Translations under genes and position numbers: made by a program | In this document: positions 42,300-64,000 of the stretch, one piece after another | Layout: each line of letters opens with the position of its first letter | Position numbering within the stretch: position 1 is the stretch's first letter | NCBI GenBank assembly: GCA_963764625.1 | Contig: CAVXTH010000006.1 | Location: forward strand, 586,029 to 650,028 | Length of the DNA: 64,000 bases | Reading direction: 5' to 3' | Source: Candidatus Krumholzibacteriota bacterium | GTDB taxonomy: Bacteria; Krumholzibacteriota; Krumholzibacteriia; JAJRXK01 | The notes under the pieces: generated by a model | Database searches by the model: none | The model's input: the letters and a program-made list of their open reading frames with translations, nothing else | What the model was told of the DNA's origin: nothing

Positions 42300-42301
42300 A
42301 C

Positions 42302-43363: not shown

Positions 43364-43417
43364 TCGACCGAGTCGAAATCCTTCCGCCCGACTCTCAACG
43401 AAAGAATCGCCGCGAGT

Positions 43418-46953: not shown

Positions 46954-48011
46954 GTTCGGAACAGACGAAACCGGTGCGGAGGATCGTGGTGACACGGCTG
47001 CGTTACTTGGGCGATGTCGTGTTGAGCACTCCTCTTCTCGCAGCGTTACGCGAAGCCCATCCCGAGGCCACGATCGAATATCTGACTTTGGCGAACTACG
47101 CCGAGGTTCTCTTGCACCACCCCTGCGTGGATCGAATCCACGCCTTACCCAACAAAGCCGGTCCGCTCGCGAGCCTCAAGATGGCGGCGACGCTCGCGTG
47201 GCCGCGCGTCGATTGGTGGTTCGATCTCTTCGGAAATCCGCGAAGCGCTCTGCTGTGTGCCCTGGCGCGACCTCGGCATTCCGTGGGACCAGCCCGAGGG
47301 ATTCGCTCGCGGGTTTTCCAGCACCGTCGCGGTGGGCCGGAACATCCGGTCTCCGCCATCGACCATCACCTCGACAAGGCAGAGCCCTTGCTCGGCCACG
47401 TGGAAGGGCGCCGCGTGCGCTTGGAACTGAGCCCCGAAGAACTCGACGCGATTCAAACCAGGTTTCCGGCGCTGGGCGAGAAGTCGCCCATTCTGCTGCA
47501 TCCGGGAGCTACCTGGCCCAGCAAGGCCTGGCCCGCGGCCAAATGGTCGGCTCTCGTCGAAGCGCTGGAACGTGCCCACCTGGGGCCGGTTTGGATCCTG
47601 TGCGCGAGTGGGGAGGAGGAACTCAGCCACGCCATCGCGGCGCGCGCGAATGCGCAGTGCCGCGTCCTCGCACCGCTGAGTCTGAGACCGCTTATGGCGC
47701 TCATCGCGAGGGCACGAGCGTACGTGGGAAACGATGGTGGCGTGTTGCACTGCGCGGTGGGGCTCTCCACGCCCACCGTCGGTCTCTTCGGCCCCACCGA
47801 GCGCGAGATCTGGTTCCCCCACGAGCGCTTCGGTGGTTGTCGTCTGATCCAGGAGGAAGTCCCCTGCCGGCCCTGTCATCGGCATGAATGCGATCATCTT
47901 TCGTGCCTGCGCGCGCTTCCGGTGTTTCGCGTGGTGGAGAGTCTGCGCGAGCTTCTGCAAGAAGTCGAAGGACCGTCCTTCAGGCGGGGAGGACTGGTGG
48001 CCCATGGCTGA
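46950..48011 (+). CDS. glycosyltransferase family 9 heptosyltransferase
   Basis: RRIVVTRLRYLGDVVLSTPLLAALREAHPEA; C-terminal YVGNDGGVLHCAVGLSTPTVGLFGPT. Confidence 0.75.
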   Translation: MSSEQTKPVRRIVVTRLRYLGDVVLSTPLLAALREAHPEATIEYLTLANYAEVLLHHPCVDRIHALPNKAGPLASLKMAATLAWPRVDWWFDLFGNPRSALLCALARPRHSVGPARGIRSRVFQHRRGGPEHPVSAIDHHLDKAEPLLGHVEGRRVRLELSPEELDAIQTRFPALGEKSPILLHPGATWPSKAWPAAKWSALVEALERAHLGPVWILCASGEEELSHAIAARANAQCRVLAPLSLRPLMALIARARAYVGNDGGVLHCAVGLSTPTVGLFGPTEREIWFPHERFGGCRLIQEEVPCRPCHRHECDHLSCLRALPVFRVVESLRELLQEVEGPSFRRGGLVAHG

Positions 48012-49032
48012 TCCGCGTCACGTACTGATTCTGCGCCGGCGGGCCGTGGGGGATATCATCGTCTCACTTTCCCTGGTGCGCGCTCTTCGCCGCCTTTGGC
48101 CTCAGGCGCGCCTCTCTATGGTGGTGGACCGCATCGCGTCCGAGTTGATCGAGCATTCCGGCGCCGTGGACGAAGTCCTCGTCTATGCACCGCCCTTGGG
48201 AACAGCCGCGCGTCTCGCGCACGACCTGAAGTGGATCGCCAAACTCCGGGCCCAGGACTACGATGTCACGCTCGATCTTCTGGGAACCCCGCAGACGGCT
48301 CAGTGGACGCGGCTCATTGCCTCCCGCGTGCGGGTGGGACGAAGAAGACGGTGGAGGAGTTGGGCCTACAACTACCTGCTCGAGCCATGCCACAGCGGGG
48401 TCCGCTTCGCGGGTGACGAGGTCCTGGATTTCGCGCGGGCTCTGGGGGCTCGGGTGAAGGACTGGGAACCGGCCGCGGTCCTGCCCCCGGACGATGCCGG
48501 GCCGTCGGGAGCTCTCCCGGTCGGAAAGGGCCCTTGGGTGGTGTTGCACGCCCCCGCGAACTGGGAGGCGAAGGCCTGGCCTACGCGGCATTGGGTCGAG
48601 CTGGTGCGAGGGCTCTCCGCCGCCGGGATCGAGCGCATGGAGCTGTCGTGGGGCCCGGGGGAAGAAAAGTGGCGCGATGAGATCATGCGGGAAACCGAAG
48701 GGTTGGTTCAGGCCATGCCACCCACTACTCTGCTGGAACTCGCGCGCCGGCTCTCGCGATGCGATCTACTCGTCTCGATCGATAGCGGTCCGGTTCACCT
48801 GGCGGTAGCGGAAGGAACTCCAACTCTGACCCTCTTCGGCAGCACCGACGAACGAGGATGGCACCATTCCTCATCCATCCATCGTGCGCTCGTGCACGAG
48901 GTGGAATGCCGGCCGTGCGATCTGACGACCTGCCCGGTGCAGGGACATCCCTGCCTCGATTCTCTGCCGCCGGCGCAAGTGTGCACGGCGGCACTCAAAC
49001 TCCTGGCGGAACGGGCGGAGGTTCGGGGATGA
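48004..49032 (+). CDS. glycosyltransferase family 9 heptosyltransferase
   Basis: VLILRRRAVGDIIVSLSLVRALRRLWPQA; C-terminal LVSIDSGPVHLAVAEGTPTLTLFGST. Confidence 0.75.
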   Translation: MADPRHVLILRRRAVGDIIVSLSLVRALRRLWPQARLSMVVDRIASELIEHSGAVDEVLVYAPPLGTAARLAHDLKWIAKLRAQDYDVTLDLLGTPQTAQWTRLIASRVRVGRRRRWRSWAYNYLLEPCHSGVRFAGDEVLDFARALGARVKDWEPAAVLPPDDAGPSGALPVGKGPWVVLHAPANWEAKAWPTRHWVELVRGLSAAGIERMELSWGPGEEKWRDEIMRETEGLVQAMPPTTLLELARRLSRCDLLVSIDSGPVHLAVAEGTPTLTLFGSTDERGWHHSSSIHRALVHEVECRPCDLTTCPVQGHPCLDSLPPAQVCTAALKLLAERAEVRG

Positions 49033-49860
49033 GCTCGATCGGGGCGATCGTGATCACGCGAAACGAGGCACGCAATATCGAGGCGTGCATGCAAGGGCTT
49101 GCCTTTTGTGCGCAACGGGTGATCGTGGATTCGTTCAGTGATGACGAAACGGTGGAGCTCGCCCGCCCCCTCGCTGACAAGATTTATCGACGCACATTCA
49201 CCAGCTGGGGAGAGCAGAAGAACTGGGCGCTCGAGCAACTCGACACCGAGTGGGCGCTCATCGTCGACGCTGACGAGCGCGTGGGAGAAGCGCTGTCCCG
49301 GGAGATCCAGGGGGCCGTAACTTCCGGCGCGAAGGATGCATATTGGATAAGGCGGAAGAATTACTTCTTCGGCCGTTGCATCCGCGGAGCGGGCTGGAAT
49401 CGGGATAGAGTACTGCGGCTCATGCGCTTGCAGGCGGGGCGCTACGACGAACGACGGGTGCACGAGGAAATCCGGCTGCACCCGGGGCGGCGTGCGGGGG
49501 AACTCGAACACCGGCTGGATCATTTCTCCTATGAGGACTGGTCTTCCACTTTCGCCCGGATGTCGGCCTACAGTAGCCGCGGAGCGGCGGACGCACTGGC
49601 GGCGGGACAGCGCGCCACGATCTGGCGCCTGATCTCTCGCGCCCAGTGTGCGGTTCTGGAGGCAGTATCTCCTGCAGGGAGGCTTTCGGGACGGAGTGCA
49701 CGGTCTGGTTCTCTGCGGGCTTGGCGCCTCTCAGCTTTTCTTGAAGCTGGCCAAGATGCGTTTGGGCGAGCTTCCCATGACCGCCGAGGACAATGGCGCG
49801 GGAGAAGTGGAAATCGTGCAAGGTCCCGCCCCGCGAGAGAGCGAGAAGGAGAACGAGTGA
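49029..49860 (+). pseudogene. GT2 LPS-core glycosyltransferase (WaaE/KdtX-like), interrupted by a frameshift near 49640-49660. The N-terminal part lies in the 49029 frame; the C-terminal 70 codons lie in the 49648-49860 frame
   Basis: GT2 N-terminus IVITRNEARNIEACMQGL...VIVDSFSDDET...DADER; the conserved C-terminal amphipathic tail (RFWRQYLLQGGFRDGVHGLVLC...KLAKM) is out of frame. Confidence 0.6.
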
Positions 49861-49871
49861 GGCTCAGGTTC

Positions 49872-50639
49872 ATGGCACGACGCACCTTCGTGGTGGCTCC
49901 CCTTCTCCTTGTGGCACTGAGCTTCGGTGCCCCCGGAAGATCGTACGCCTCGCCCGGTTTCGGAGCGGGAGAGGAAGCTGAGTTCAAGATCAGTTACGGA
50001 GTCATCAGCGCGGGAGAGGGGACTCTCTCCGTCCTGCCGTTTCTGGACTACGACGGATCGCACTGTTATCACTTTCGGTCGCGCGCCCGCAGCAATCGCT
50101 TCTTCAGCGCCATCTTTCGCGTCCGGGACCAGGCCGACTCGTTCATGGATGCCGACTCTCTCGTCACGCGCTACTTCAACAAGCATCTACGCGAGGGCAG
50201 TTTTCGGCGCGACGTGGAGATTCATTTCGATCAGAAGGCGAGGAAGGCGTATTTCCCGGACGGAACGGTCGACGAGATCCGCCCGAATACCCAGGACGTT
50301 CTCTCGGCCTTCTTCAAAGTGCGCGCGATGAAGCTCGAAGTTGGAATGGAGTTCGACGTGCCCACTCACGGCGACAAGGAGATGTATCCGCTGAAAGTGA
50401 AAGTGCTTCGCCGCGAATCAGTGGAGAACGAAGCTCTGGGGGCTGTGGATTGCATCGTGGTGCAACCGTTCCTGGATGACGACGGCCTCTTCAAACACGA
50501 GGGTGATCTCTTGTTGTGGATGAGCGATGATGAGAGGCACATTCCAGTGAAGATGCGGGCCAACGTTCCGGTGGGAGCGATCGAAGCGGACCTGATTCGG
50601 TACACGCCTCCGGACGCCCCGCCGTCGAGTGGGAACTAA
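49872..50639 (+). CDS. DUF3108-like secreted protein
   Basis: Signal peptide MARRTFVVAPLLLVALSFGAPGRSYA; 255 aa; ATG in frame inside the long 48858-50639 ORF, downstream of the GT2 stop. Confidence 0.55.
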   Translation: MARRTFVVAPLLLVALSFGAPGRSYASPGFGAGEEAEFKISYGVISAGEGTLSVLPFLDYDGSHCYHFRSRARSNRFFSAIFRVRDQADSFMDADSLVTRYFNKHLREGSFRRDVEIHFDQKARKAYFPDGTVDEIRPNTQDVLSAFFKVRAMKLEVGMEFDVPTHGDKEMYPLKVKVLRRESVENEALGAVDCIVVQPFLDDDGLFKHEGDLLLWMSDDERHIPVKMRANVPVGAIEADLIRYTPPDAPPSSGN

Positions 50640-52698: not shown

Positions 52699-54255
52699 AT
52701 GAACCACGAGATGAACCTCTTTCCCAATGCCCCAGCTCGCCCGAGCCTGAGCGAGGAGCGCCTTGCCATGGCCCTCTTCCTCATCTTTCTGTTGGGCCTG
52801 CTGCTGAGGCTCTTTGGACTCTCGCATCAAAGCCTCTGGATCGACGAGATGATCACGCTGCGCCAGGGCCTGATTCCGGGGCACGGACTCTGGGAACAGT
52901 TCCTGGATGACTATCACAATCCCCTTCCCATGCTGGTCATCACCCAGCTCGCCCACCTGAGCCACTCGGAAACGGTGCTGCGTTTTCCCGGCGCGGTATT
53001 GGGAGCCTTGAGCGTGCCGCTGATCTTCTTGCTCGGACGGCGTCTCGCGGGCGCGCGAACCGGGCTCTTCGCCGCACTCCTCTTGGCGGTGAGTCCGTTC
53101 CATCTCTTCCACTCGCAGGAGCTTCGCGGGTATGCGTGGATGATCTTCTTCGGACTGGCCACCACCCTGGTTGCGGTGAACGTTCGGAGGCGTTTGAGCT
53201 GGCCGCGCGCGCTTCTTCTCGCGCTCCTGGGCATCGCCACCACTCTGTGCAATCTCGAGGGTCTGTTCTGGATGGGCAGTCTGGCGTTGGCCTGTCTTGC
53301 CGCCGGCCTGGTGAAACGCCGCGATCTGAAGACCTGGGGGGTGGCCTTCGGACTCATCGTCTTGGTCACTGCACCGTGGTGGACCGGAACCCTGCACACG
53401 CATCACGAGGAGAGACTTCTGCCGGGGGAACAGACGGGAGTTCCCATGCGCGGGAGCACCACTCTGGGGAAATGGGCGATTCCCTACACCGGCTTCGTAC
53501 TCGCGATGGGAAATACCTTGGGCCCGACACCGCTCGAGCTTCACGCCGAGAGCGAGAGCACGATCGAAGGAAAGCTCGGTCTCGCGCGGAGGCATTGGCC
53601 CGCGGTGGCGGGTGTGGCCGGACTCGTTCTCGTGCTCGGTCTCAGCGGGATTCTCGCTCTGCGTTCGCGCGCCGGCCTTCTTCTGTTGTGGGTGATCGTG
53701 CCGGTCACAATCGCAATTTGGCTGGCGGCGAGAAACGTGAAGCCTCTGAACCCTCGCTACTGCATCGCTGCGCTGCCGGCCCTCATGCTGCTGTTCGCGG
53801 CGGGTCTGGATGCCCTGCCGAGAAAGACCGCCCTCATGGTGCTCATTGCGTGGCTCGCATTCTGCGGGGTGGCAGACTACCGCTACCACTTCATGCCCGA
53901 ATACCAGCGGGAAGACGTACGGGGAGCCGTGCGATTGGTGGAAGAACGTGAAGGGCCCGACGACTTCATCATCGCCCCGACTGTTTTCGGGGTGTTTCAG
54001 TGGTATTATCGAGGGAGGAATCCAGTCGAATCCTACTGGTGGTCCAAAGTGGATACCTCTCTCGCCGATGTTACGCGCCGCCTGGATCTCCTGGATCCCG
54101 GACGCAAGTTCGCCTGGTACGTTCGCTGCCGCCCCTGGCACGATGACCCCAACGGTTGGCTGCTCGGGGCGTTCGAGGAAAACTGGCGCTACCGCGCCCT
54201 GTTTCAATTGCCCGGGGTCGAGGTCTATCTCTTCGAGCGCAGAGGAGCGCACTGA
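52699..54255 (+). CDS. GT-C family glycosyltransferase (ArnT/PMT_2-like; polyprenyl-phospho-sugar dependent)
   Basis: 518 aa; about 11 predicted TM helices; N-terminal PMT_2/ArnT-like region (SLWIDEMITLRQG...FHLFHSQELRGYAWMIFF). Confidence 0.65.
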   Translation: MNHEMNLFPNAPARPSLSEERLAMALFLIFLLGLLLRLFGLSHQSLWIDEMITLRQGLIPGHGLWEQFLDDYHNPLPMLVITQLAHLSHSETVLRFPGAVLGALSVPLIFLLGRRLAGARTGLFAALLLAVSPFHLFHSQELRGYAWMIFFGLATTLVAVNVRRRLSWPRALLLALLGIATTLCNLEGLFWMGSLALACLAAGLVKRRDLKTWGVAFGLIVLVTAPWWTGTLHTHHEERLLPGEQTGVPMRGSTTLGKWAIPYTGFVLAMGNTLGPTPLELHAESESTIEGKLGLARRHWPAVAGVAGLVLVLGLSGILALRSRAGLLLLWVIVPVTIAIWLAARNVKPLNPRYCIAALPALMLLFAAGLDALPRKTALMVLIAWLAFCGVADYRYHFMPEYQREDVRGAVRLVEEREGPDDFIIAPTVFGVFQWYYRGRNPVESYWWSKVDTSLADVTRRLDLLDPGRKFAWYVRCRPWHDDPNGWLLGAFEENWRYRALFQLPGVEVYLFERRGAH

Positions 54256-54899
54256 TGGTGGCCCGCGCTCTCGGCGCCGAGTTGGCCAAGACGCACTGGT
54301 TCTATGAACCGGTCAAACGGCTCTTCGACCTCGTTGCCGCCACCCTGGGCCTGATCTTTTTCCTGCCCCAAGTTCCTTTCCTCGCTCTACTGGTGAAACT
54401 GGAATCACCGGGTCCCTTTCTGTTCCGGCAGGAGCGGGTGGGCAAGGGCGGCCGGCATTTCTTCTGCTTCAAGATCCGTTCGATGGTGGTCAACGCCGAG
54501 GCGCTCAAGCAGAGTTTGTCGCATCTCAACGAGGCCGACGGGGCCGCATTCAAGATCCGTCAAGATCCGCGCATCACTCGCGTGGGACAGTTCGTACGGC
54601 GTTCGTCGCTCGACGAATTCCCCCAGCTTCTCAATGTCCTGCGCGGGGAGATGTCCATCGTGGGCCCGCGCCCTCAGGTTCCCGAGGAAGTGGCCCAGTA
54701 CCGCCCGGAGCATCGAGCGCGTCTGGAAGTAAAACCGGGCCTCACCTGTCTCTGGCAGGTCAGCGGACGCAACGATCTCGATTTTGAGGAGTGGATGCGC
54801 ATGGACCGCGAATACGTGCGGAGGCGGGGACTGAAACTGGATCTGTGGATCCTCCTGCACACCCTTCCCGCCGTGATCGCGCGCAAGGGCGCGTATTGA
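54255..54899 (+). CDS. polyprenyl-phosphate sugar-1-phosphate transferase (small PglC/WbaP-C-like bacterial sugar transferase)
   Basis: PF02397 signature (LDEFPQLLNVLRGEMSIVGPRP ... PGLTCLWQVSGRN); single N-terminal TM. Confidence 0.8.
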   Translation: MVARALGAELAKTHWFYEPVKRLFDLVAATLGLIFFLPQVPFLALLVKLESPGPFLFRQERVGKGGRHFFCFKIRSMVVNAEALKQSLSHLNEADGAAFKIRQDPRITRVGQFVRRSSLDEFPQLLNVLRGEMSIVGPRPQVPEEVAQYRPEHRARLEVKPGLTCLWQVSGRNDLDFEEWMRMDREYVRRRGLKLDLWILLHTLPAVIARKGAY

Positions 54900-54947
54900 G
54901 ATGGTTCGAGGGCAAGTTCTGAACTCACCACCAAGGCCGTCTCCCTC

Positions 54948-55865
54948 ATGAGCGATGCCACTTTCGCTTCCGGACGTCTCTCGACCTGGCTGCGCTTCAC
55001 GCGGCCCTTCACCCTTTGGCCCCCGGGCCTGGGAATGATCAGCGGTGGATTGACCGCCATGGGCGCCTATCCGCGCGAGAGCTTCAGCGGGGACATTCTG
55101 GTCAAGCTCGTCCTGGGCGCCGTGATGGCCGCGGTCCTCAACGCGGCCAGCAACGGGATCAATCAGATCTACGACCTCAAAGTCGACCGGGTGAACAAGC
55201 CGGAGAGAGCGCTGGTGACCGGAGCGATGAGCGTAGGGGAGGCCAAGATCCTCTCGGCCGTTCTGTACCTCGTGGCAATGATCCTGGCGGCGCTGATCAA
55301 CATCGAGTGCTTGCTCTTGGCCGCGGTCGCGGCGGTGTTGACCTGGGTGTATTCCGCGCCTCCCTTGCGCAGCAAGCGACACGGCTGGTGGGCCAACCTG
55401 ACCATCGCGGTTCCCCGTGGGCTCTTGCTCAAGGTGTGCGGTTGGGCCTCGGTGAAAACCTTCATGGCCTTCGAACCGTGGTACATAGGGTCTATCTTCT
55501 TTCTCTTTCTGCTGGGAGCCTCCAGTACAAAGGATTTCGCGGATATGGAAGGAGATCGCCTGGGCGGGTGCGAAACGCTTCCTCTTCGCTACGGAGTTCA
55601 TCGCGCGGCCTGGATGATCGCACCTTCCTTCGTGCTTCCGTTCATCATGCTCCCGCTGGGCACCGAGCTTGGAATTCTTACCGGCAATCCCCTTCTGCTG
55701 AATCTGTTGGGACTGGGTCTGGCGGCCTGGGGCTGTTATACGGTGTATCTTCTAGTACGGCGTCCCGATGAGCTCGCGACCACCGAGAATCATCCTTCCT
55801 GGACCCACATGTACCTCATGATGATGGCGCTGCAGGTGGGCTTCGCCATCTCGTACCTGTTCTGA
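54948..55865 (+). CDS. UbiA-family prenyltransferase / polyprenyl-phosphate phosphoribosyltransferase-like
   Basis: Asp-rich motifs NQIYDLKVDRVNKPERAL and KDFADMEGD; about 8 TM; 305 aa. Confidence 0.7.
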   Translation: MSDATFASGRLSTWLRFTRPFTLWPPGLGMISGGLTAMGAYPRESFSGDILVKLVLGAVMAAVLNAASNGINQIYDLKVDRVNKPERALVTGAMSVGEAKILSAVLYLVAMILAALINIECLLLAAVAAVLTWVYSAPPLRSKRHGWWANLTIAVPRGLLLKVCGWASVKTFMAFEPWYIGSIFFLFLLGASSTKDFADMEGDRLGGCETLPLRYGVHRAAWMIAPSFVLPFIMLPLGTELGILTGNPLLLNLLGLGLAAWGCYTVYLLVRRPDELATTENHPSWTHMYLMMMALQVGFAISYLF

Positions 55866-55879
55866 ACGAGGGGAGAGTC

Positions 55880-56263
55880 GTGATCGTCGGCCTGGGAATC
55901 GACCTCTGCGAAGTGAGACGCCTGCGCGATCTGGAAGAACGCTATGGCGAGCGATTCCTGCGCCGCATCTTCACGGACAAAGAGCGGGACCGCTGCGCGG
56001 GACGGCGCCACCACGAATGCCTCGCCGGACGGTTCGCGGCCAAAGAAGCGGCGCTGAAGGCCCTGGGCACCGGACTCTCGCAGGGCATCGCCTGGCGTGA
56101 CGTCGAGTTGACGCGGGGGGAATACCAAGCTCCCACCATCCTCTTTCATCGGCGGGCCCGCGAGATCTTCGAGCGTCTGGGGGGGAAGCGGGTGCAGGTT
56201 TCGATCACGCACGACGGAGGCAACGCGGCCGCAGTCGTGATTCTCGAAGGAGAGAGCTCATGA
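55880..56263 (+). CDS. acpS: holo-[acyl-carrier-protein] synthase
   Basis: IVGLGIDLCEVRRL...FAAKEAALKALG ACPS motifs; 127 aa. Confidence 0.85.
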   Translation: MIVGLGIDLCEVRRLRDLEERYGERFLRRIFTDKERDRCAGRRHHECLAGRFAAKEAALKALGTGLSQGIAWRDVELTRGEYQAPTILFHRRAREIFERLGGKRVQVSITHDGGNAAAVVILEGESS

Positions 56264-56931
56264 ATCGAGACTCTCTGGCTCTCCTGGTCTCGGGGGCCTG
56301 GCTGCTGGTGGTCCTGGTCATCGCCGAGCTCGCGCGGCGGAGAGGCATGGCGCGGGTGGACACGCGGCGCCTGGTTCACGTGGCCATCGCGAGCTGGATC
56401 GTTCCCACCTTCTTGCTCTACGAGAGCTGGCCGTGGGCCGCTGCGCCGGCCTTCGCCTTCGTGATCGTCAACGCCCTGAGTCTCCGCTTCGATCTCATCA
56501 AGAGCGTGGAAATCCGCGAGCGGAGCCTGGGGACGGTATTCTTTCCCCTCAGCGTGGGCATCCTGACCATCTTGGGCTGGCACGATCCCTGGCGGCCAGT
56601 GGCCGCGGCCGGAGTGTTGAGCATGGGGTGGGGAGACGCTTCGGCCTCGTTCGTGGGCCGCCGTTGGGGTCGTCGTCTCTACCATGTCGCCGGTCACCAA
56701 AGGAGCGTGGAGGGTTCTCTGACCATGCTCGTGATCAGTTGGCTGGCTGTGCTCGTGGCGGGCGCTCTCTTGGGGAGGGGAGTCGATCCCGGTTGGGCCG
56801 AGGCGGGCCTGCTCGCGGCCCTGGTGGCCACCGTGCTCGAAGGAATCTCGTTGTTCGGCGCGGACAATCTTCTGGTGCCCCTGTCCACCTCCGCCATGCT
56901 GGCCCTCATGCACGGGAGGCTGTGGGTGTGA
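56260..56931 (+). CDS. CTP-dependent polyprenol kinase-like membrane protein (dolichol kinase / phytol kinase VTE5 / CdsA superfamily)
   Basis: 6-7 TM; C-terminal GWGDASASFVGRRWG matches the GDxxAxxxGxxxG motif of the CTP-dependent kinase family. Confidence 0.55.
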   Translation: MNRDSLALLVSGAWLLVVLVIAELARRRGMARVDTRRLVHVAIASWIVPTFLLYESWPWAAAPAFAFVIVNALSLRFDLIKSVEIRERSLGTVFFPLSVGILTILGWHDPWRPVAAAGVLSMGWGDASASFVGRRWGRRLYHVAGHQRSVEGSLTMLVISWLAVLVAGALLGRGVDPGWAEAGLLAALVATVLEGISLFGADNLLVPLSTSAMLALMHGRLWV

Positions 56932-57977
56932 TGGAGACCTCGAATTTCGCTCCGGTGGACCGGGTGTTTCTCACCGGGGGCACGGGCTATTTGGGCAAGC
57001 ACTTGGTGCGCGAGTTTCTCGAAGCCGGCTACGAACTGCTGTTACTCACGCGCGAGAATTCCGATCGCAGCGGCCTGCCGCTAAAGGGTGTCCGCTACGT
57101 GGAAGGTGACTTGCTCGATCCTGCTAGCTACGCGCACGTGCTGGGCGAAGTGGGAGCGGTGGTGCATTCGGCCGGCCTGGTCAGCCGCTGGGAGAAGGAC
57201 AAAGACCGTTTCGATCGGGTGAATGTCGAAGGCCTCGACGGATTGCTACGCGCCTGTACCCAGGCCCAGGTGGCGCGCGTGGTGTACACCTCTTCGTTCT
57301 TCGTGCTGGGTCCGGGAGAGGACGCCGCGCCGCGCGACGAGACGCAGCGCATGCCGGTCGCTGGCTTCAACGATTACGACCGAACCAAGATTCTGGCGGA
57401 AAAATGCGTGGGCGCGCACCGACGCCAAGGACTCGACGTCATCAGTGTGCTGCCCACCGTGATCTACGGTCCCGGTGCGAGAACCCAGGGGAACCACGTG
57501 GCGGAGATTCTGGAAGATCTGCTTGCGGGAAAGCTCCCGGGCGTGATCGGAAGTGGTGCGCAGGTCTGGAACTACGTCTTCGTGCGCGACGCCGCGCGCG
57601 GACATCGGCTGGCTCTGGAGAAGGGGGAAGCCTGCGGCGACTATCTTCTGGGAGGAGAGAACGCGAGCATGCTGGAGTTTCTGGACCTCGCAGCCGAGAT
57701 CGGTGAAGTCTCTGCCCCCAAGAGAAAGGTCCCCTTCAGGGTTCTGATGGCGGTGGCGCGTCTGCAGATGTTGAGAGCTCGTCTCACCGGCAAGGCTCCC
57801 GAACTCACCAGTGGCATGGTGCGAAGTTATCAGTACGATTGGGCGTTCAATGACGCGAAGGCGCGCCGCGAGCTGGGCTACGAGGGTAGAGACCTCCACG
57901 ATGGTCTCAGTGAGACCATCGGATGGTTGCGCGCGGGCGGAGTCTCTCCGTTTCGCGAACGGTGGGAATTCCAGTGA
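56931..57977 (+). CDS. NAD-dependent epimerase/dehydratase family SDR
   Basis: N-terminal Rossmann motif VFLTGGTGYLGKHL; 348 aa. Confidence 0.75.
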   Translation: METSNFAPVDRVFLTGGTGYLGKHLVREFLEAGYELLLLTRENSDRSGLPLKGVRYVEGDLLDPASYAHVLGEVGAVVHSAGLVSRWEKDKDRFDRVNVEGLDGLLRACTQAQVARVVYTSSFFVLGPGEDAAPRDETQRMPVAGFNDYDRTKILAEKCVGAHRRQGLDVISVLPTVIYGPGARTQGNHVAEILEDLLAGKLPGVIGSGAQVWNYVFVRDAARGHRLALEKGEACGDYLLGGENASMLEFLDLAAEIGEVSAPKRKVPFRVLMAVARLQMLRARLTGKAPELTSGMVRSYQYDWAFNDAKARRELGYEGRDLHDGLSETIGWLRAGGVSPFRERWEFQ

Positions 57978-58720
57978 ATGCCCTCCCCGCCTTCAGCTAT
58001 GGCTTCGATTGGCACGCGCTCGCTCTCCCTCTGCTGGGGAACCTGCTGCTGGCGGTCGTGGCCTGGCGCCGATCGCTGGTCAGCCGCAGTGGCTTTTGGG
58101 GCGGAGCGCTGTTGGGAAGCTGGATCCTGATCCTGGGCGGCGGGGGAGCCTACCTGCTCCTGTGCGCATTCTTTGTCCTGGGGACCTCCGCGACTCGGCT
58201 GGGCTATCGGCGGAAGGCGGAGCGAGGACTGGCCCAGGAGGAGCAGGGACGCCGGGGGGCCCGTCACGTGCTCGCGAATTGCGGCGTCGGGTTGCTTCTG
58301 GTCACGCTCTATCCCCGTCATTTCTCGTTCGCCCTCGGCGCGGCGTATGTTGCCTCCTTCGCCACCGCGACCGCGGACACCCTGGGCAGCGAGGTCGGTC
58401 AGTTGTGGGGCCGGCGGACCTTCGACCTCTTGCGCTTCCGCCCAGTCCCGCGCGGCAGCGAGGGCGGAGTCTCGCTGGAGGGAACCCTCGCGGGGGCGCT
58501 GGGGGCCGTGATTCTGGCGCTGCTGGGCTCCTTTCTGCGATTCTATCCACTTTCGCTGTGCTGGATTCCCGCCCTGGCCGGGGTTCTCGGAAGCGCCCTG
58601 GAGAGCCTCCTGGGGAGTTCAGCGAGGCTGCGCGCGGGACTGGACAACGAGCTGCTGAACTTTCTGAACACGGTGTTTGGCGCCATTCTGGCCTGGACCG
58701 CGCTCCAGATGCTGTATTGA
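57974..58720 (+). CDS. DUF92 / COG1836 integral membrane protein (VTE6 phytyl-phosphate-kinase family)
   Basis: Multi-TM; conserved ATATADTLGSEVGQ segment typical of DUF92; GTG start overlapping the upstream stop. Confidence 0.55.
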   Translation: MNALPAFSYGFDWHALALPLLGNLLLAVVAWRRSLVSRSGFWGGALLGSWILILGGGGAYLLLCAFFVLGTSATRLGYRRKAERGLAQEEQGRRGARHVLANCGVGLLLVTLYPRHFSFALGAAYVASFATATADTLGSEVGQLWGRRTFDLLRFRPVPRGSEGGVSLEGTLAGALGAVILALLGSFLRFYPLSLCWIPALAGVLGSALESLLGSSARLRAGLDNELLNFLNTVFGAILAWTALQMLY

Positions 58721-59117: not shown

Positions 59118-59933
59118 ATGTCCCTCGAGGTTTACTCCGCGAAACGCTCGCTTCTCAGGCTCTGGCCGGTACTCTTGCTATTCGGTTTGGGCGCCTGCGG
59201 TTCGAGTGCCTACACCGACGTCGATCTCCAGAAGGATCTCGACGTTCCCAGTGCGAGTCATCTGAGTCCGGAGGCTCAGACCTTCGCGGCCGCGCCGGAT
59301 ACCATGCAAGTGCCGCCGGTCTACCGCATCGGCAGCGGCGATGTGCTCGAAGTGGTCTTCTTCACCCATCCGGACCAGAACCGCTTCGTGACGGTACGGC
59401 CGGACGGGCGGATCACGCTGCCCTACGTGGGCGATTTGATGGCGCGGGGGAAGGAGCCCACGAAGCTTGCGAGCGAGATCCAGAACGACTACTCGAGAGT
59501 GCTGGTCGATCCCAAAGTCGATATCCTGGTGAACAAGATCGGCGGGAAGTACTACGTGCTGGGGGAAGTGAAGAACGCGAACGAGTTCAGTTACGAGCGG
59601 CCTCTCACTCTTCTACAGGCTATTGCCGGTGCTGGTGGGTACAGTAACGACGCACGGCTCTCCAATTTCGTTCTGATTCGGGTCGACGGGAAAGGCGGAC
59701 GTTTCGCTGCTGTCTTCAACATGCGCGAGTACATGAGCCAACGAAAAAAACGAGGGGACATCTACATCCAGCCGGATGACATCGTCTGGGTGCCCAAGGA
59801 CAACATCAGCCGCTGGGACAATGCAGCCCGAAAGTTGTTTGGCACCGTCGTGCACGCAGAGGATATGGTCTACAAGGGGCTGCAGATAGTCAAATTCGAC
59901 GAGGTCTACCCGGGCAGATATTACGCTCCTTGA
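59118..59933 (+). CDS. polysaccharide export outer-membrane lipoprotein (Wza/Poly_export family)
   Basis: Lipobox LFGLGACGSS; Poly_export motif YRIGSGDVLEVVFF; SLBB-like region; GGAGGAG RBS. Confidence 0.8.
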   Translation: MSLEVYSAKRSLLRLWPVLLLFGLGACGSSAYTDVDLQKDLDVPSASHLSPEAQTFAAAPDTMQVPPVYRIGSGDVLEVVFFTHPDQNRFVTVRPDGRITLPYVGDLMARGKEPTKLASEIQNDYSRVLVDPKVDILVNKIGGKYYVLGEVKNANEFSYERPLTLLQAIAGAGGYSNDARLSNFVLIRVDGKGGRFAAVFNMREYMSQRKKRGDIYIQPDDIVWVPKDNISRWDNAARKLFGTVVHAEDMVYKGLQIVKFDEVYPGRYYAP

Positions 59934-59963
59934 GATCGCAACGCCGATTGGGAGAAGGAAGCC

Positions 59964-61409
59964 ATGTCAGGACTCTACAGCCAAGGACCGGTACAGGGGG
60001 AGCGCGATACCACGATGCGCGACCTTCTGTCGGTCGTGTTCAAGCGCAAGTGGCTCATCATCATCTTTTTCCTGGGAACCTCGGTCCTGGTGGCCCTGAA
60101 GGTGGTCACCACTCCGGAGACCTGGTCGGCCGACGCCACCCTCATGTTACAGCGGCAGGGACGAACTAGTGTGATGGAGAACAGTTCCAGGGCCTTGCCT
60201 TGGGTGGAGGTGATGGAGTCGGAGGTCGAAATCGCCCGCAGTGTCCCGGTGCTGCAATTGGCGCGCGCCAAACTCAAGGAACCCACGAAGGACTTTCCCG
60301 AGGGTATCGATCTGAGCATGGGCGCTCTGGGCGCACAAATCAAATCGGGAGGCGTCGGAGAGTCAAACGTGGTGTACATCACAAGCATCGGCGATCAGCC
60401 CAAGAGAGCCATCCGCATAGCCAACAAGGTTGCTGAAGCCTATGTCGAATACCATAAGAAGATGTTCGCGCTTCCCGATGCGGCAAGCGCAGTCAAGGCG
60501 CAGACGGATTCGACTCTCAAGGCTCTATCGGACTTGCAGAATGAGCGGCAGCGAATCTTGAATGAGGCGGGGTTCACCGATCTCAAAGCCGAAGAGACGA
60601 ATCTCCACTCGTTGCGGCGCGAACAGCGCAGCAACCTCAGTCAGGCGGAACTGGAGATAAGTACTCTTCGTGAACAGGTAGCGGCCATACCAAAGGATGT
60701 TAATGGAATTGGCAGCGATCTTCCTTTCAATATACCGAGAGGATACGCGCAGCAGGAACTCATGATGAATGCGGTAGAAAGATACCGTAGGAGTCAACAT
60801 GATCTTGAGGAACTGAAATCTCAGTATACGGAAGAGCATCCCAAGGTCAAATCCGCGGAACTCGAACTCCAAGAGCGTCGCAAGGCTCTGGAGAGTTCTA
60901 TCCAGCAATTAGTTTCGCTCAAGACTGAGGAACTCAAGATCGCGGAGGCCAAGCGCGATGGAATTATGCACCAGATTCAGAAGATCGACGCGCAGCTGGC
61001 CAGGATGCCCGATTTTAATCGCAAGGTGAGCTTCCTCGATACCCAAATCGACAGCGCCGAGAAGCAGTACGCCAAGCTGAACTCGAAGTACGTGGACACC
61101 CAGCTGAGCCAGGTGAGCTACCAGGACTACGGCGTTTCGCTGCTCTCTCCGGCGGTGTCCGCCTACAAGAACACCCGCGGCGATCTGGTCCGCATGGCCC
61201 TGGCGCCCCTCCTGAGTCTGTTGGCCGGCATCGGTCTGGCCTTCTATCTGGAAAATCTGGATCACTCGATGAAGACGCGCGAGGACGTGGAGCATCATCT
61301 CGAGATTCCCGTCCTGGCCAGTTTCCCCGACGTGGACGAGGGGGAATCGGATCTCGAGCCCCGGACGAGGCGAACCCCCTTCTGGAAAGGCCGCCGGGGC
61401 GGCCGCTGA
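59964..61409 (+). CDS. polysaccharide chain-length determinant (Wzz/PCP periplasmic domain; lacks a kinase domain)
   Basis: Wzz N-terminus (LRDLLSVVFKRKWLIIIFFLGT); long coiled-coil periplasmic region; second TM near the C-terminus; 481 aa. Confidence 0.75.
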   Translation: MSGLYSQGPVQGERDTTMRDLLSVVFKRKWLIIIFFLGTSVLVALKVVTTPETWSADATLMLQRQGRTSVMENSSRALPWVEVMESEVEIARSVPVLQLARAKLKEPTKDFPEGIDLSMGALGAQIKSGGVGESNVVYITSIGDQPKRAIRIANKVAEAYVEYHKKMFALPDAASAVKAQTDSTLKALSDLQNERQRILNEAGFTDLKAEETNLHSLRREQRSNLSQAELEISTLREQVAAIPKDVNGIGSDLPFNIPRGYAQQELMMNAVERYRRSQHDLEELKSQYTEEHPKVKSAELELQERRKALESSIQQLVSLKTEELKIAEAKRDGIMHQIQKIDAQLARMPDFNRKVSFLDTQIDSAEKQYAKLNSKYVDTQLSQVSYQDYGVSLLSPAVSAYKNTRGDLVRMALAPLLSLLAGIGLAFYLENLDHSMKTREDVEHHLEIPVLASFPDVDEGESDLEPRTRRTPFWKGRRGGR

Positions 61410-61459
61410 ACCGAGCACGCGATTTGGCCGGGGAAGTACCGGCCCGGGAACGGTAGACG

Positions 61460-62980
61460 ATGTATCGGCACCATTTCGGCCTGCGGGAGAAGCCCTTTCA
61501 GATCGCTCCCAGTCCGAGGTTCCTTTTTCCCTCCGAGACGCACGACGAAAGTCGCGCGCGCATTCTCTATGGGATCGAGGACAACCGCGGGTTCGTCGTG
61601 GTCTACGGCAGGGTCGGCCTGGGAAAGACCACGGTGTTGCTCTCGGTGCTCGAGGAACTCGACGCCAAGACCCGAACTGCACTTCTCTATCAGCCCATTT
61701 CCAGCTTTCACGATCTGCTGCGCATGACTGCTCATGAGTTCGGTCTGGGCAGCGAGAACCGGGATGAGGTGAATCTCATCTGGGATCTGAACGAGTTTTT
61801 CATCCAGAGGCTGTCCGAGAGTGAGAAATGCGTGCTCATCGTCGACGAGGCGCAGAATCTCAGCCTCGAGATCCTGGAGAAGCTTCGGACGCTCAGCAAT
61901 CTGCAAACCGAGAGCGCCTCGCTCCTGCAAATCGTTCTGGTGGGTCAACCCGAGCTGTACGACAAGCTCTCCGATCCCCGGTTATTGCAGCTGCGGCAGC
62001 GGGTGGGCGTGTGGCACGAAATCGAGTCCCTCAATCGCGAGGAAACCACGGACTATATCTTGCATCGCCTGCAGCGGGCCGGTGCGCGCCGCCCCAAGGA
62101 AATCTTCTCGGTGAGAGTGTGCGAGCGCGTTCATGAGTTGACCGGAGGCGTCCCCAGAGTCATCAACCAGGTATGCGATACAGCGCTGATGATCGCTTAC
62201 GGCAAGGAATCGCCGCAAGTCGAGGTGGAGGATGTGGTGGAGGCGGCCCACGAGTTACACCTGGTGGAGGAAGAGCCCAAGCCTCGCGAGACGCAGCTAG
62301 CGAAGGAACGTCCCACTGAGGAACTCAAGAAGAGTCCGGTGTGGGCTCGACTCAGCTTCGCCGCGGTCATCTTGCTCGTCGTTCTGGGAGCGATTTGGAT
62401 ATTCTTCGGGGGAAATTTGCGGCTCGCGCTCCGGGGCGACCGCATGGCTACCGGGAGCGGCATCGTGGACGCGGTGGCCGCTTCACCCGCGACCGATTCC
62501 ACCGCCGCGGCGCAGAATCTCCCCGCGGTCCAGAAGGAGGAGATGCGGGTTCCGAAGGAGTCGGGCAAGGAGACTCCGGCCACGAGTCCCGGCGACGAAA
62601 TCTCTCCGGAGAGAATGGAGCGCATGAAGGCCCACCTGGAGAACGTTCGCAGTTTGCGCGCGGCCGGGAAACCCGTCTATACGGTGCATTTGAATTCGTT
62701 CAAAGAGGTGGCGCGCGCGCAGGAATTCGCTAGTGATATCGCGAGGGAACAAAACTGGGAGCAGCCGGTATTCATGGAGCGGAGCGGGCGTAATCCGGTC
62801 TGGTACCGGGTGTTCGCCGGAGAGTTCGGGCGGAGCCGCGATGCCCTGGCCTGGATCGAACAACTCAAAGTTGAACGAAGAGTGGTCTACGCCAATCTCC
62901 AGCAGCTGAGCCGTGATGTCGAGGTGCTCGTGCCGACCGAACCGGATTCGCGCGTGTCCCTGAATGGAGTGGACGGATGA
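61460..62980 (+). CDS. ExeA/GspA-like AAA ATPase with C-terminal TM and SPOR-like peptidoglycan-binding domain (PEP-CTERM-locus-type secretion ATPase)
   Basis: Walker A GRVGLGKTT; Walker B VLIVDEAQNL; TM at about aa 300; C-terminal SPOR-like fold (YTVHLNSFKEVARAQEF...WYRVFAGEF). Confidence 0.7.
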   Translation: MYRHHFGLREKPFQIAPSPRFLFPSETHDESRARILYGIEDNRGFVVVYGRVGLGKTTVLLSVLEELDAKTRTALLYQPISSFHDLLRMTAHEFGLGSENRDEVNLIWDLNEFFIQRLSESEKCVLIVDEAQNLSLEILEKLRTLSNLQTESASLLQIVLVGQPELYDKLSDPRLLQLRQRVGVWHEIESLNREETTDYILHRLQRAGARRPKEIFSVRVCERVHELTGGVPRVINQVCDTALMIAYGKESPQVEVEDVVEAAHELHLVEEEPKPRETQLAKERPTEELKKSPVWARLSFAAVILLVVLGAIWIFFGGNLRLALRGDRMATGSGIVDAVAASPATDSTAAAQNLPAVQKEEMRVPKESGKETPATSPGDEISPERMERMKAHLENVRSLRAAGKPVYTVHLNSFKEVARAQEFASDIAREQNWEQPVFMERSGRNPVWYRVFAGEFGRSRDALAWIEQLKVERRVVYANLQQLSRDVEVLVPTEPDSRVSLNGVDG

Positions 62981-63807
62981 GCAGCATTCGTGATGCCCTC
63001 AAGCGTGCCGAGCGGGAACGACTGCGGCGGCAGGAAGAGGCGAAAACATTGAGTGAAGCGCGTACCTCGCAGGAGGAGTCCGGGGCCTTGTCCACCGAGG
63101 CGGATGGCCAGCGCAGCGCTACCGACCCGCGCCGCGAGCTCAAGGTGGTCGACAGTCAGCGGATCTTCACGGTCGAAGTGCCGATGGGTTTCACGGAAGA
63201 ATTGGCGCTGTTCCGTCAGGGAGTGGAAGCGGCGGTCCCCAAGCCCAGGCGTTCGTTTATCCTCAGCGGCGCCACCGCCGGCGAAGGAGTCACCACGCTG
63301 ACCACCTTCCTGGGGACGAGTCTCGCGGTGCGCGACGGCAAGAAGACGGTAATCATCGACGCCAGTTTCAAGTCACCGCGATTCTCGCGCATCTTCGGCC
63401 TTCTCGGTCGTCCGGGCCTCTCCGACTACTGCAGCGGTTCAGCCGAGTTGGCGGAGGTCCTCGCCAAGACCGATTGCGATCAACTCTTCCTCATGGGAGT
63501 GGGAACCGAGCTCTATAACCCTTCCCTCATTCTCAGTTCCGATCGTGCTCGCAGCCTCGCTTCAGAGCTCACGCAACGCTTCGACTACGTGCTGTTCGAC
63601 ACCGGCGCCGTGCTGAACCACGCCGAGACCTCCATGCTCTCCTCCAGCGTCGACGGAGTGGTGTTGATCGTCCGCTCGGGCAAAACGAAACGCGAGGTTC
63701 TCCTCAAGGCGGAAAAACTCATTCGCTTCAGCGGTGGCCGGGTGATCGGCTCGGTCCTGAACCGTCGTCAGTATCCCATACCCGATTCGATCTACAAGCG
63801 ACTCTAG
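62977..63807 (+). CDS. BY-kinase (CpsD/Wzc C-terminal domain)-like protein with degenerate Walker A (GEGVTT instead of GEGKST)
   Basis: ParA/MinD-like fold (ILSGATAGEGVTTLT; Walker B YVLFDTGAV; GVVLIVRSGKT); only two Tyr in the C-terminal tail. Confidence 0.65.
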   Translation: MSSIRDALKRAERERLRRQEEAKTLSEARTSQEESGALSTEADGQRSATDPRRELKVVDSQRIFTVEVPMGFTEELALFRQGVEAAVPKPRRSFILSGATAGEGVTTLTTFLGTSLAVRDGKKTVIIDASFKSPRFSRIFGLLGRPGLSDYCSGSAELAEVLAKTDCDQLFLMGVGTELYNPSLILSSDRARSLASELTQRFDYVLFDTGAVLNHAETSMLSSSVDGVVLIVRSGKTKREVLLKAEKLIRFSGGRVIGSVLNRRQYPIPDSIYKRL

Positions 63808-63823
63808 GCCGGCGAAAGAAGCG

Positions 63824-64000
63824 ATGTCCCTCGCCCTCGACGCCCCACTGCTGCCATCCGGTTGTCACGCCCAAGAGCATCGCGTCAGAGAATTCCTCGA
63901 GCGCCTGGTCGAGCAAGCCCACAAGGCGCTAGGTACACGACTGCGGGCCGTGGTGTTGGGGGGAAGTCTGGCACGGGGAGAGGGAGTGGTCCTTTCCCGC
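63824..64000 (+). CDS. partial ORF running off the window end (possible nucleotidyltransferase-like N-terminus, GGSLARGEG)
   Basis: ATG at 63824; open to the window end; GSxARGE-like motif. Confidence 0.3.
   Translation, partial: MSLALDAPLLPSGCHAQEHRVREFLERLVEQAHKALGTRLRAVVLGGSLARGEGVVLSR

Follow-up and report, generated by a model that had tools for sequence, protein, structure and literature searches.

Near the end of a 64,000-nucleotide stretch of DNA from Candidatus Krumholzibacteriota (assembly GCA_963764625.1, contig CAVXTH010000006.1, positions 586,029-650,028 of the forward strand; hereafter the window), four genes constitute the export and co-polymerase core of a Wzx/Wzy-dependent polysaccharide pathway. 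The last of them encodes a pseudokinase of the bacterial tyrosine kinase (BY-kinase) type. It has the full BY-kinase fold minus the catalytic lysine of the Walker A motif, the second aspartate of the Walker A′ motif and the C-terminal tyrosine cluster, and it belongs to a multi-phylum family. The 276-amino acid (aa) protein probably binds the cytoplasmic tail of the adjoining polysaccharide co-polymerase (PCP) and scaffolds PCP oligomers without tyrosine phosphorylation. This pseudokinase/PCP-2 pair is derived from an XrtA-type export module and is accompanied by a wall-anchored ATPase of the TIGR03015 type. It is of a kind already described, because the pseudokinase concept has been published for EcpK/EpsV and HfsB/HfsA (PMC12004946). 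The literature searched does not describe how large the family is, how selectively its residues have been lost or how the ATPase changes in correlation, all of which can be tested by experiment.

Phosphorylation-independent control of PCPs is a current question, opened by EcpK in 2025. The present family is dominant in soil Acidobacteriota, where exopolysaccharides (EPS) matter for soil aggregation and carbon. Its degeneration is intermediate, with the lysine and aspartate gone and the Mg- and phosphate-binding scaffold kept, which suits it well for telling scaffold models from nucleotide-switch models. The uncharacterised TIGR03015 ATPase also gains a testable context, as it is coupled to active and to dead kinase genes and carries a long, usually membrane-anchored extension mostly in the dead-kinase systems. 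No new type of machine is revealed, current models stand, and a pseudokinase in itself is no longer a surprise.

The pseudokinase

The pseudokinase gene (62977..63807, + strand) encodes an N-terminal basic helix, a disordered linker and a complete Rossmann-like BY-kinase domain. An AlphaFold2 model built from a 68-sequence alignment has a predicted local distance difference test score (pLDDT) of 90.1. The top Foldseek matches in the PDB are all BY-kinase domains (E 6e-16 to 3e-13), namely those of Etk (3cio), CapAB (4jlv/3bfv), Wzc (7nhs/3la6), VpsO (6u1q) and BceF (6z0p), and entries of Wzc-K540M with MgADP are among the fold matches. At the sequence level the protein scores 102.2 bits against TIGR03018, missing the cutoff of 230.65, and 101.9 bits against TIGR01007 (cutoff 108.05). 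Its NCBIfam matches are of the BY-kinase, MinD and BcsQ types, with no other model found.

The Walker A motif reads GEGVTT (63280..63297, + strand). HMMER alignments set it opposite GIGKS of BceF, GEGKT of VpsO and GAGKS of CapB, with V105 (63289-63291) on the catalytic lysine, just as the original prediction, made from the letters alone, had read it. The Walker A′ motif, canonically hhhDxDxR, is IIDASFK (63352..63372, + strand) and aligns to LIDADMR, LIDCDLR and VIDGDMR of solved kinases. Its first aspartate is kept, S130 stands for the second and a lysine stands for the arginine. The Walker B-like YVLFD (63586..63600, + strand) retains its aspartate, D208, and VLFDTGAV aligns to VLIDSPPV and IVIDTPPC of solved kinases. 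Set against the canonical hhhhDxxP, the motif here is YVLFDTGA, the aspartate being invariant in the family and the proline absent in the close clade. In alignment A1, which covers the broad set of homologs without the Walker A lysine (K-less, as opposed to K-containing), D208 is invariant and G104 nearly so.

The last 16 residues form a family-specific motif, LNRRQYPIPDSIYKRL (63757..63804, + strand), in place of the tyrosine cluster. It was correctly foreseen that two tyrosines would be left, and these are Y266 and Y273; the idea of a reduced cluster did not survive. Y273 is invariant in 34/34 close homologs and in at least 90% of the wider set, while Y266 is usually a phenylalanine. Because Y273 alone is conserved, the tail is to be read as a new, fixed motif and not as a shrunken tyrosine cluster.

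A family with selective residue loss

An alignment across homologs had been proposed as the way to learn whether the lysine replacement is lineage-wide, and it is. The databases contributed 119 homologs. The 42 closest of them, with identities of 50% or more, have GEG[V/T]TT or a near variant and none has the lysine, one being truncated and without the region; many of the distant homologs likewise do without it. In the column of the second Walker A′ aspartate, 88 K-less homologs have mostly asparagine (N 69, S 10, D 3), as against aspartate in 28/29 of the K-containing ones. The Walker B aspartate is kept in 87/88 K-less homologs. The tails differ in the same way. K-less proteins mostly end in LNRRx[FY]xIPxx[IL]Y[KR]RL with few tyrosines, whereas the 29 K-containing homologs mostly have tyrosine-rich tails, with 3-6 tyrosines in most, and none of them has the K-less motif.

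The family is also large. Scanning one genome per species for the tail motif together with the pattern TKREVLxKA[ED] returned 80 related loci, from at least eight named lineages. They span Krumholzibacteriota, Eisenbacteria, many Acidobacteriota, Gemmatimonadota, Planctomycetota, Verrucomicrobiia, metagenome-assembled genomes (MAGs) of the Desulfobacterota type, Entotheonella and a gammaproteobacterium. Lysine occurs in 0/77 of the alignable non-redundant proteins from these loci, the position being filled variously (C 45, T 14, S 7, A 6, V 5, N 1). When 1.84 billion cluster representatives were searched with a profile, 30,396 proteins matched at E <= 1e-30, ordinary BY-kinases included. The best 150 contain 144 new representatives at the 50% cluster level, and of these 140 lack the lysine (it is present in 4/144) and 132 have the tail motif. 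The same 144 keep the P-loop glycine in 139 cases, the serine or threonine after the lysine position in 137 and the Walker B aspartate in 136.

Within the close family (alignment A2, 34 sequences) 64 columns are invariant and the mean column identity is 65%. Because of these 64 invariant columns we read the protein as a conserved one that has lost its catalytic residues selectively and without decay, which at the level of sequence indicates strong purifying selection. A crude neighbour-joining tree with Fitch parsimony places about four changes between the K-containing and K-less states, and the state is clade-structured. The K-less gene always adjoins a gene for a kinase-less PCP or lies one gene away from it, and such PCPs keep their cytoplasmic tail.

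One kinase encoded downstream of the ATPase gene on a metagenomic contig (L108, Ga0315281_10014723) has intact GEGKT and DxD motifs and a tail that is similar to the K-less motif yet has four tyrosines (...QYHIPGYIYRYL / ...ILTNIQYHIPGYIYRYL, that is ...HIPGYIYRYL). Judged by its sequence it could be an evolutionary step from the tyrosine cluster to the fixed tail, and suggests that the K-less tail descends from that cluster.

Three long K-less members that carry the tail motif, P0183 (723 aa), P0254 (698 aa) and P0158 (530 aa), have the kinase-like domain at the C-terminus and are presumably PCP fusions, that is PCP-2a-like versions of the pseudokinase. At the locus of another member, P0069 (L007), a single 663-aa protein joins the outer-membrane polysaccharide export (OPX) domain to a GT4 glycosyltransferase, and the K-less gene lies between genes of the sulfatase/Phosphodiest family. 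In Krumholzibacteriota, too, a gene of the Phosphodiest family lies beyond the pseudokinase region.

The exporter and the co-polymerase

The four + strand genes are tightly packed between 59118 and 63807 in the order OPX, PCP, ATPase and BY-kinase-fold protein, separated by 30 nucleotides (nt), 50 nt and a 4-nt overlap, with 16 nt before the next gene. The four open reading frames (ORFs) and their domain calls agree with what had been predicted from the sequence. The same genes are called, and their proteins are identical, on an independent JGI metagenome contig (L001). A gap of 397 nt separates the first export gene from the gene before it; therefore the operon probably starts with the OPX gene.

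That gene (59118..59933, + strand) encodes a short, Wza-like OPX lipoprotein of 271 aa with Poly_export (PF02563, 72.7 bits) and the SLBB-type PF10531 and PF22461 domains; it scores 106.5 bits against TIGR03027 (cutoff 180). Its N-terminus has the lipobox LFGLGAC and the C-terminal outer-membrane helix is absent, which makes it Class-3-like by sequence. Class 3 OPX proteins are thought to require a separate outer-membrane beta-barrel (PMC12819527), and no such porin was identified at the locus.

The second gene (59964..61409, + strand) encodes a PCP of the 2b type, without a kinase domain (481 aa, PF02706 Wzz). Hydropathy gives a first transmembrane (TM) helix at residues 24-42, a long periplasmic region and a second TM helix at 408-426. 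The matches to TIGR03017 (89.6 bits) and TIGR03007 (63.6 bits) both fall under their cutoffs. The protein had been described as a periplasmic Wzz domain only, and this has to be corrected, as a cytoplasmic C-terminal tail of about 50 residues follows the second helix (ENLDHSMKTREDVEHHLEIPVLASFP..., 61251..61406, + strand). The tail is conserved: its motif ExLDHSx[KR][TS]xx[DE]VExxLx[IV]P[VL]L[AG]S is kept in the PCPs of about 45 related loci. In Wzc and CapA the cytoplasmic tail of the PCP completes or activates the kinase domain, and in EpsV it has been modelled as binding EcpK (PMC12004946).

The TIGR03015-type ATPase

The third gene (61460..62980, + strand) encodes a 506-aa AAA ATPase of the TIGR03015 (ExeA/GspA-like) type with a cytoplasmic core (residues 1-267; AAA_22, 86.9 bits), a TM helix (298-316) and a periplasmic SPOR domain (406-472; 62675..62875, + strand; PF05036, 29.8 bits, cutoff 21, E 7.8e-7). 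The core covers profile positions 1-267 of 269 in TIGR03015 at 272.8 bits (E 3e-81) and misses the curated cutoff of 324.5. SPOR and LysM domains bind peptidoglycan. The Walker A motif GRVGLGKTT (61607..61633, + strand) and the DEAQ box of Walker B (61844-61855, + strand; VDEAQ with the residue before it) are intact. Across 39 homologs the residues G53, G55, K56, T57, D129, E130 and A131 are invariant, GxGKT and DEA being present in all, and the P-loops of the acidobacterial ATPases are intact by alignment (PGMGKT[TS]).

The ATPase stop codon overlaps the start of the pseudokinase gene in an ATGA junction (62977..62980, + strand), an arrangement that points to translational coupling. The same 4-nt overlap is found in 22/46 K-less loci and in the XrtA-type locus L090. 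The gene order Wza-PCP-ATPase-kinase-like occurs in about 45/81 K-less loci, including those with a PCP too divergent for phmmer, and most of the others have Wza-PCP-kinase-like; about 40% of the K-less loci have no adjacent ATPase gene. Shorter forms of the ATPase are coupled to catalytically intact kinases in L090, in a second locus, L089, and in seven metagenomic loci. A metagenome scan seeded with the ATPase was informative for 8/80 loci, the rest being mostly generic ExeA-like ATPases outside EPS loci. The original prediction had the ATPase inserted into a split export machinery. Since the order PCP-ATPase-kinase is also that of L090 and L089, with the 4-nt overlap in L090 too, insertion does not describe it.

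The C-terminal extension of the ATPase is what changes with the kinase. It is at least 100 aa long in 35/39 K-less loci and in 1/9 K-containing ones (Fisher p ~1e-5, a value that overstates the evidence because the test counts related genomes as independent samples), and in 25 of the K-less loci a TM helix is detectable. Extensions end in SPOR in 7/39 (Krumholzibacteriota, Eisenbacteria, Gemmatimonadales), in Sel1 in 8/39 and in LysM in 3/39, the latter two in Acidobacteriota. The periplasmic end thus swaps by lineage between SPOR, a LysM-like form (…LNP…GQxIxLPL) and a Sel1-like form (…AEVELARLYLEG…QNCxQA…), as seen when L032-L081 (Acidobacteriota) are compared with the window, L012, L013, L035 and L055.

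In the closest genome (locus L009, from contig CAVSGG010000005.1) the ATPase gene, at 8484-10004 of L009, is split into ORFs of 335, 142 and 118 aa and the other genes are intact. Assembly frameshifts are more likely here than a true pseudogene.

Comparison with known systems

In Myxococcus xanthus, EPS requires EcpK, a protein with a BY-kinase fold but with neither Walker motifs nor a tyrosine tail, which binds EpsV, a PCP without a kinase domain (PMC12004946). In that organism EPS depends little or not at all on the genuine BY-kinases or on the phosphatase. Blocher et al. 2025 unite EcpK with Caulobacter HfsB/HfsA and the pairs of Cuthbertson et al. 2009 in a phosphorylation-independent third PCP-2 subfamily, in which the pseudokinase is a scaffold (PMC12004946). 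The pair described here has two of the features that define that subfamily, a BY-kinase-like structure without catalytic residues or a tyrosine-rich tail and a kinase-less PCP-2 in a Wzx/Wzy cluster, the Wzx/Wzy genes being seen in the cluster or in its syntenic relatives. The earlier suggestion of a regulatory pseudokinase agrees with the concept published for EcpK and HfsB (PMC12004946).

The likeness to EcpK/EpsV comprises a stand-alone BY-kinase fold without the catalytic lysine or a tyrosine-rich tail, a kinase-less PCP-2 with a cytoplasmic tail, a Wzx/Wzy pathway, a short OPX and the absence of a cognate phosphatase from the locus as far as found. The published description of EcpK sets the K-less family apart from it. 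EcpK has none of the three Walker motifs left and is short of several helices and strands, whereas the K-less family keeps the full fold together with the P-loop glycine, the serine or threonine, the Walker B aspartate and the acidic residue that comes first in Walker A′. Its tail, LNRRxFPIPxxIYKRL with an invariant tyrosine, differs from the Lys/Arg-rich helix without tyrosine of EcpK and, unlike EcpK, it is often coupled to a TIGR03015-type ATPase. GumC of Xanthomonas campestris, termed a "pseudo-BY-kinase" in a 2022 review, likewise has a PCP-associated BY-kinase-like cytoplasmic domain without a tyrosine cluster and is proposed to be phosphorylation-independent (PMC9800525). In GumC the parts are fused in one polypeptide and here the pseudokinase is separate, though fused members of the family exist (P0183, P0254).

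The closest resemblance in gene content is to L090, which has the same four families, Poly_export among them, in the same order, with the ATPase between PCP and kinase and the 4-nt overlap, and a Bac_transf phosphoglycosyl transferase (PGT), Wzy_C and GT4 glycosyltransferases nearby. It differs in the kinase, which carries KEGKS, DxD and a YYY tail, and in the ATPase, which at 318 aa lacks the TM/SPOR extension. Also encoded there are EpsI, a sigma-54 activator, an asparagine synthase and an exosortase that reaches 210.9 bits against the XrtA model (cutoff 208). Both L089 and L090 have K-containing, tyrosine-rich kinases in the order Wzz - AAA_22 (308 or 318 aa) - kinase. Scores against TIGR03018 are 147.4 bits for the kinase of L090 and 194.5 bits for that of L089, and those of the ATPases against TIGR03015 are 313.5 and 255.5 bits, respectively, all below cutoff. 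For all four proteins of the window, XrtA/PEP-CTERM-associated NCBIfam models are the best or near-best match and every score is below the curated cutoff; this is the outcome of the check with TIGR03007, TIGR03015, TIGR03018 and TIGR03027 that had been recommended. Because of the shared families, order and ATPase/kinase overlap and of these best models, the module is derived from the XrtA/PEP-CTERM-type EPS module.

ExeA/GspA of type II secretion is an AAA ATPase with a TM helix and a periplasmic peptidoglycan-binding domain. The ATPase of the window shares this plan, with an N-terminal cytoplasmic AAA_22-type domain, one TM helix and a C-terminal periplasmic domain that binds peptidoglycan. 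The wall-binding module here is SPOR (LysM or Sel1 elsewhere) and not PG_binding_1, and the best family is TIGR03015 and no type II secretion model. The Pfam lists for the locus and its relatives contain no ExeB/GspB, secretin or other type II secretion family.

Proposed mode of action

We consider it likely that the pseudokinase would form a cytoplasmic scaffold, bound to the PCP tail, that governs PCP oligomerisation without a cycle of phosphorylation and dephosphorylation. The tail ...FPIPxxIYKRL is probably a remnant of the tyrosine-rich tail and would make a fixed contact between subunits or with the PCP; in Wzc the tyrosine-rich tail docks into the adjoining protomer. The ATPase, anchored to peptidoglycan in the manner of ExeA/GspA, may help to assemble or remodel a trans-envelope PCP-OPX conduit through the wall and may contact the base formed by pseudokinase and PCP. 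By analogy, its ExeA/GspA-type architecture supports, short of proof, a role in building or holding that conduit. A search with phmmer probes brought up no second BY-kinase, either in the window or in the related loci, and no LMW-PTP or PHP phosphatase family is among the genes listed for the syntenic loci, which is consistent with a phosphorylation-independent scaffold. The surroundings support a Wzx/Wzy pathway, with a Bac_transf PGT, a Polysacc_synt_3 flippase-like protein, Wzy_C and GT4 glycosyltransferases.

Several points weigh against this proposal. The contact between pseudokinase and PCP is one that we infer by analogy, and in an AlphaFold2 model of a chimera of PCP tail and pseudokinase the tail has a pLDDT of 41-50 and no docking is seen. 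The retained fold, P-loop glycine, serine or threonine and Walker B aspartate mean that the pseudokinase, unlike EcpK, may bind nucleotide and Mg. The ATPase is not obligatory for pseudokinase function, because so many K-less loci have no adjacent ATPase gene. The Fisher test on the ATPase extension is inflated by the relatedness of the genomes. Finally, the search for an exosortase covered the window and flanks of ±10 kb, with one phmmer probe (the L090 exosortase) and a regular expression for PEP-CTERM, a scope that may leave room for an exosortase elsewhere in the genome.

Alternative explanations

A possible refinement, compatible with the scaffold and given somewhat less than an even chance, is a nucleotide switch in which occupancy by ATP-Mg or ADP-Mg, without phosphorylation, would toggle ring closure and PCP oligomerisation. 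Among the 144 representatives the glycine, the serine or threonine and the Walker B aspartate are kept as selectively as the lysine is lost, and in alignment A1 D208 and G104 behave accordingly. The K540M variant of Wzc closes and oligomerises on ATP-Mg or ADP-Mg (PMC9800525), and MgADP structures of that variant are among the fold matches of the pseudokinase. For this reason the earlier prediction that the protein is unable to bind ATP is not established, since the glycine, serine or threonine and aspartate are kept and Wzc K540M binds ATP-Mg (PMC9800525). The switch is weakened by the variability of the lysine position (C, T, A, V, S, N), where no compensating basic residue is evident, and by the loss of the second Walker A′ aspartate; conservation of the glycine and aspartate, read from sequence, could also be structural alone.

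It is rather unlikely that hydrolysis by the membrane- and peptidoglycan-anchored ATPase drives the assembly and disassembly of PCP and pseudokinase and so replaces the kinase/phosphatase cycle. The intact motifs of the ATPase in every homolog, the stop/start overlap in the window and in nearly half of the loci compared, and the way in which the K-less state tracks a long, usually TM-containing extension would all fit such a cycle. However, the shorter ATPase is equally coupled to intact kinases in L089, L090 and the seven metagenomic loci. As the same ATPase accompanies intact kinases, its role predates kinase loss and is independent of it. No published function for TIGR03015 proteins was found in the literature searched. 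The earlier idea that the ATPase supplies the energy or assembly function cannot be general either, given the roughly two-fifths of K-less loci without an adjacent ATPase.

That the window holds an ordinary XrtA/PEP-CTERM system, with xrtA, epsI, prsK/R and the PEP-CTERM proteins encoded outside it, is improbable. The best or near-best models of the four proteins speak for it, the downstream GT4 glycosyltransferase of relatives best matches TIGR03088/TIGR04063, and Wzy_C-like neighbours show a weak match to TIGR03097. One acidobacterial locus, L053, has a PEP-CTERM-like ORF upstream of its Wza gene (4686-5372, − strand; …VPEPSSIYLLGVGLVGVSLGKLRR…), the single one near any K-less locus. Against it stand the scores, all of them under the curated cutoffs, and the gene content. 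The L090 probes for exosortase, EpsI and sigma-54 activator gave no phmmer match in the 64 kb of the window, and those for exosortase and EpsI gave none within ±10 kb of the 80 K-less loci. The exosortase probe matched nothing in the window or in 88 loci besides its own, though it recovered L090 itself and the exosortases of two ATPase-seeded metagenome loci, L130 and L169. The regular expression found no PEP-CTERM tail in the window and only the L053 candidate across the 80 loci. The multi-TM proteins that recur among the neighbours resemble Wzy_C/O-antigen ligases, MurJ/Wzx or DltB. The downstream search for xrtA and PEP-CTERM genes that had been advised was made through the syntenic relatives; none were found, and their downstream 10 kb holds Wzx/Wzy-type genes instead, with a Wzx-like flippase and Wzy_C. 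The assignment to a PEP-CTERM/exosortase-associated architecture therefore stands for the best-matching models and for the gene order of L090, and falls at the level of the locus for the exosortase, of which none was found in the window or the ±10 kb flanks, and for the downstream genes of the relatives.

A broader scheme, which we regard as speculative and improbable as a whole, would make the loss of kinase chemistry and the gain of a wall-anchored ATPase the two halves of one evolutionary switch, in a family present in Acidobacteriota, Krumholzibacteriota, Eisenbacteria, Gemmatimonadota and others. A cycle driven by the ATPase would take the place of the timer by which kinase and phosphatase set the assembly cycles of the PCP, and SPOR, LysM or Sel1 would inform it of the state of the peptidoglycan. 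The FPIPxxIYKRL tail would permanently hold the pseudokinase ring together, and the ATPase would open it.

There is little to recommend the view that the pseudokinase is a substrate, its invariant Tyr273 being phosphorylated in trans by a BY-kinase encoded elsewhere so that phospho-regulation is kept. It would account for the conservation of Y273 in the 34 close homologs and most of the wider set, and for intermediates of the L108 type, which have the lysine plus the tyrosine-containing ...HIPGYIYRYL tail. A second BY-kinase is absent from the window and the related loci, however, no phosphatase family is among the genes listed in the syntenic loci, and in the EcpK case the BY-kinases and the phosphatase of M. 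xanthus barely affect EPS (PMC12004946). That the whole observation is an artefact has practically no probability: a misassigned Walker A is ruled out by residue alignment to three solved kinases with V105 on the lysine, and a decaying pseudogene by the 64 invariant columns, the canonical fold of the well-scoring model (pLDDT 90.1) and the identical protein on an independent contig.

Gene neighbourhood

The exact proteins are on record from two contigs only, the second of which (L001, 11.5 kb) reaches 530 nt past the end of the window. In the closest genomic relatives, MAGs of Candidatus Krumholzibacteriota or unclassified bacteria, the kinase-like protein has 90%, 76% and 72% identity. The host organism is known from MAGs only.

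The gene after the pseudokinase begins at 63824 and is cut by the window end (63824..64000, + strand). It encodes a nucleotidyltransferase-like motif, GGSLARGEG...SDIDL. In relatives the gene product has about 400-430 aa (L002 10851-12083; L004 10904-12184) and matches no Pfam or NCBIfam family. Since the gene is met in Krumholzibacteriota loci only, it is a lineage-specific unknown of the operon. The 10 kb downstream in syntenic Krumholzibacteriota encode this protein (410 aa), a Phosphodiest-family enzyme, a Polysacc_synt_3 flippase-like protein, an ArnE/F-like protein, an 829-aa unknown, Wzy_C and GT4 glycosyltransferases.

The initiating PGT of the same polysaccharide region (Bac_transf, TIGR03025, 281 bits) lies upstream at 54255..54899 on the + strand and is also called on L001; in most other K-less loci and in L090 it is found just downstream of the kinase-like gene. 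A syntenic set conserved upstream (52699-58720) comprises a GT-C/PMT_2-like glycosyltransferase, the small Bac_transf PGT, a UbiA prenyltransferase, a holo-ACP synthase, a CTP_transf_1-like membrane protein, an NAD-dependent epimerase and DUF92. That UbiA, an epimerase and GT-C occur together hints at a pathway that feeds the polysaccharide from polyprenyl-phosphate-sugar donors.

Further upstream, 42263-49032 contains a row of four GT9 (heptosyltransferase-family) paralogs, an MsbA-like ABC exporter and a HAD phosphatase, and looks like a region of the lipopolysaccharide-core type beside the EPS region. A Lon protease is encoded at 39915-42299 and a 593-aa DUF3108 protein at 48858-50639. The GC content dips to 0.576 at 60001-62000, from the PCP gene into the beginning of the ATPase gene, compared with 0.60-0.65 elsewhere in the window.

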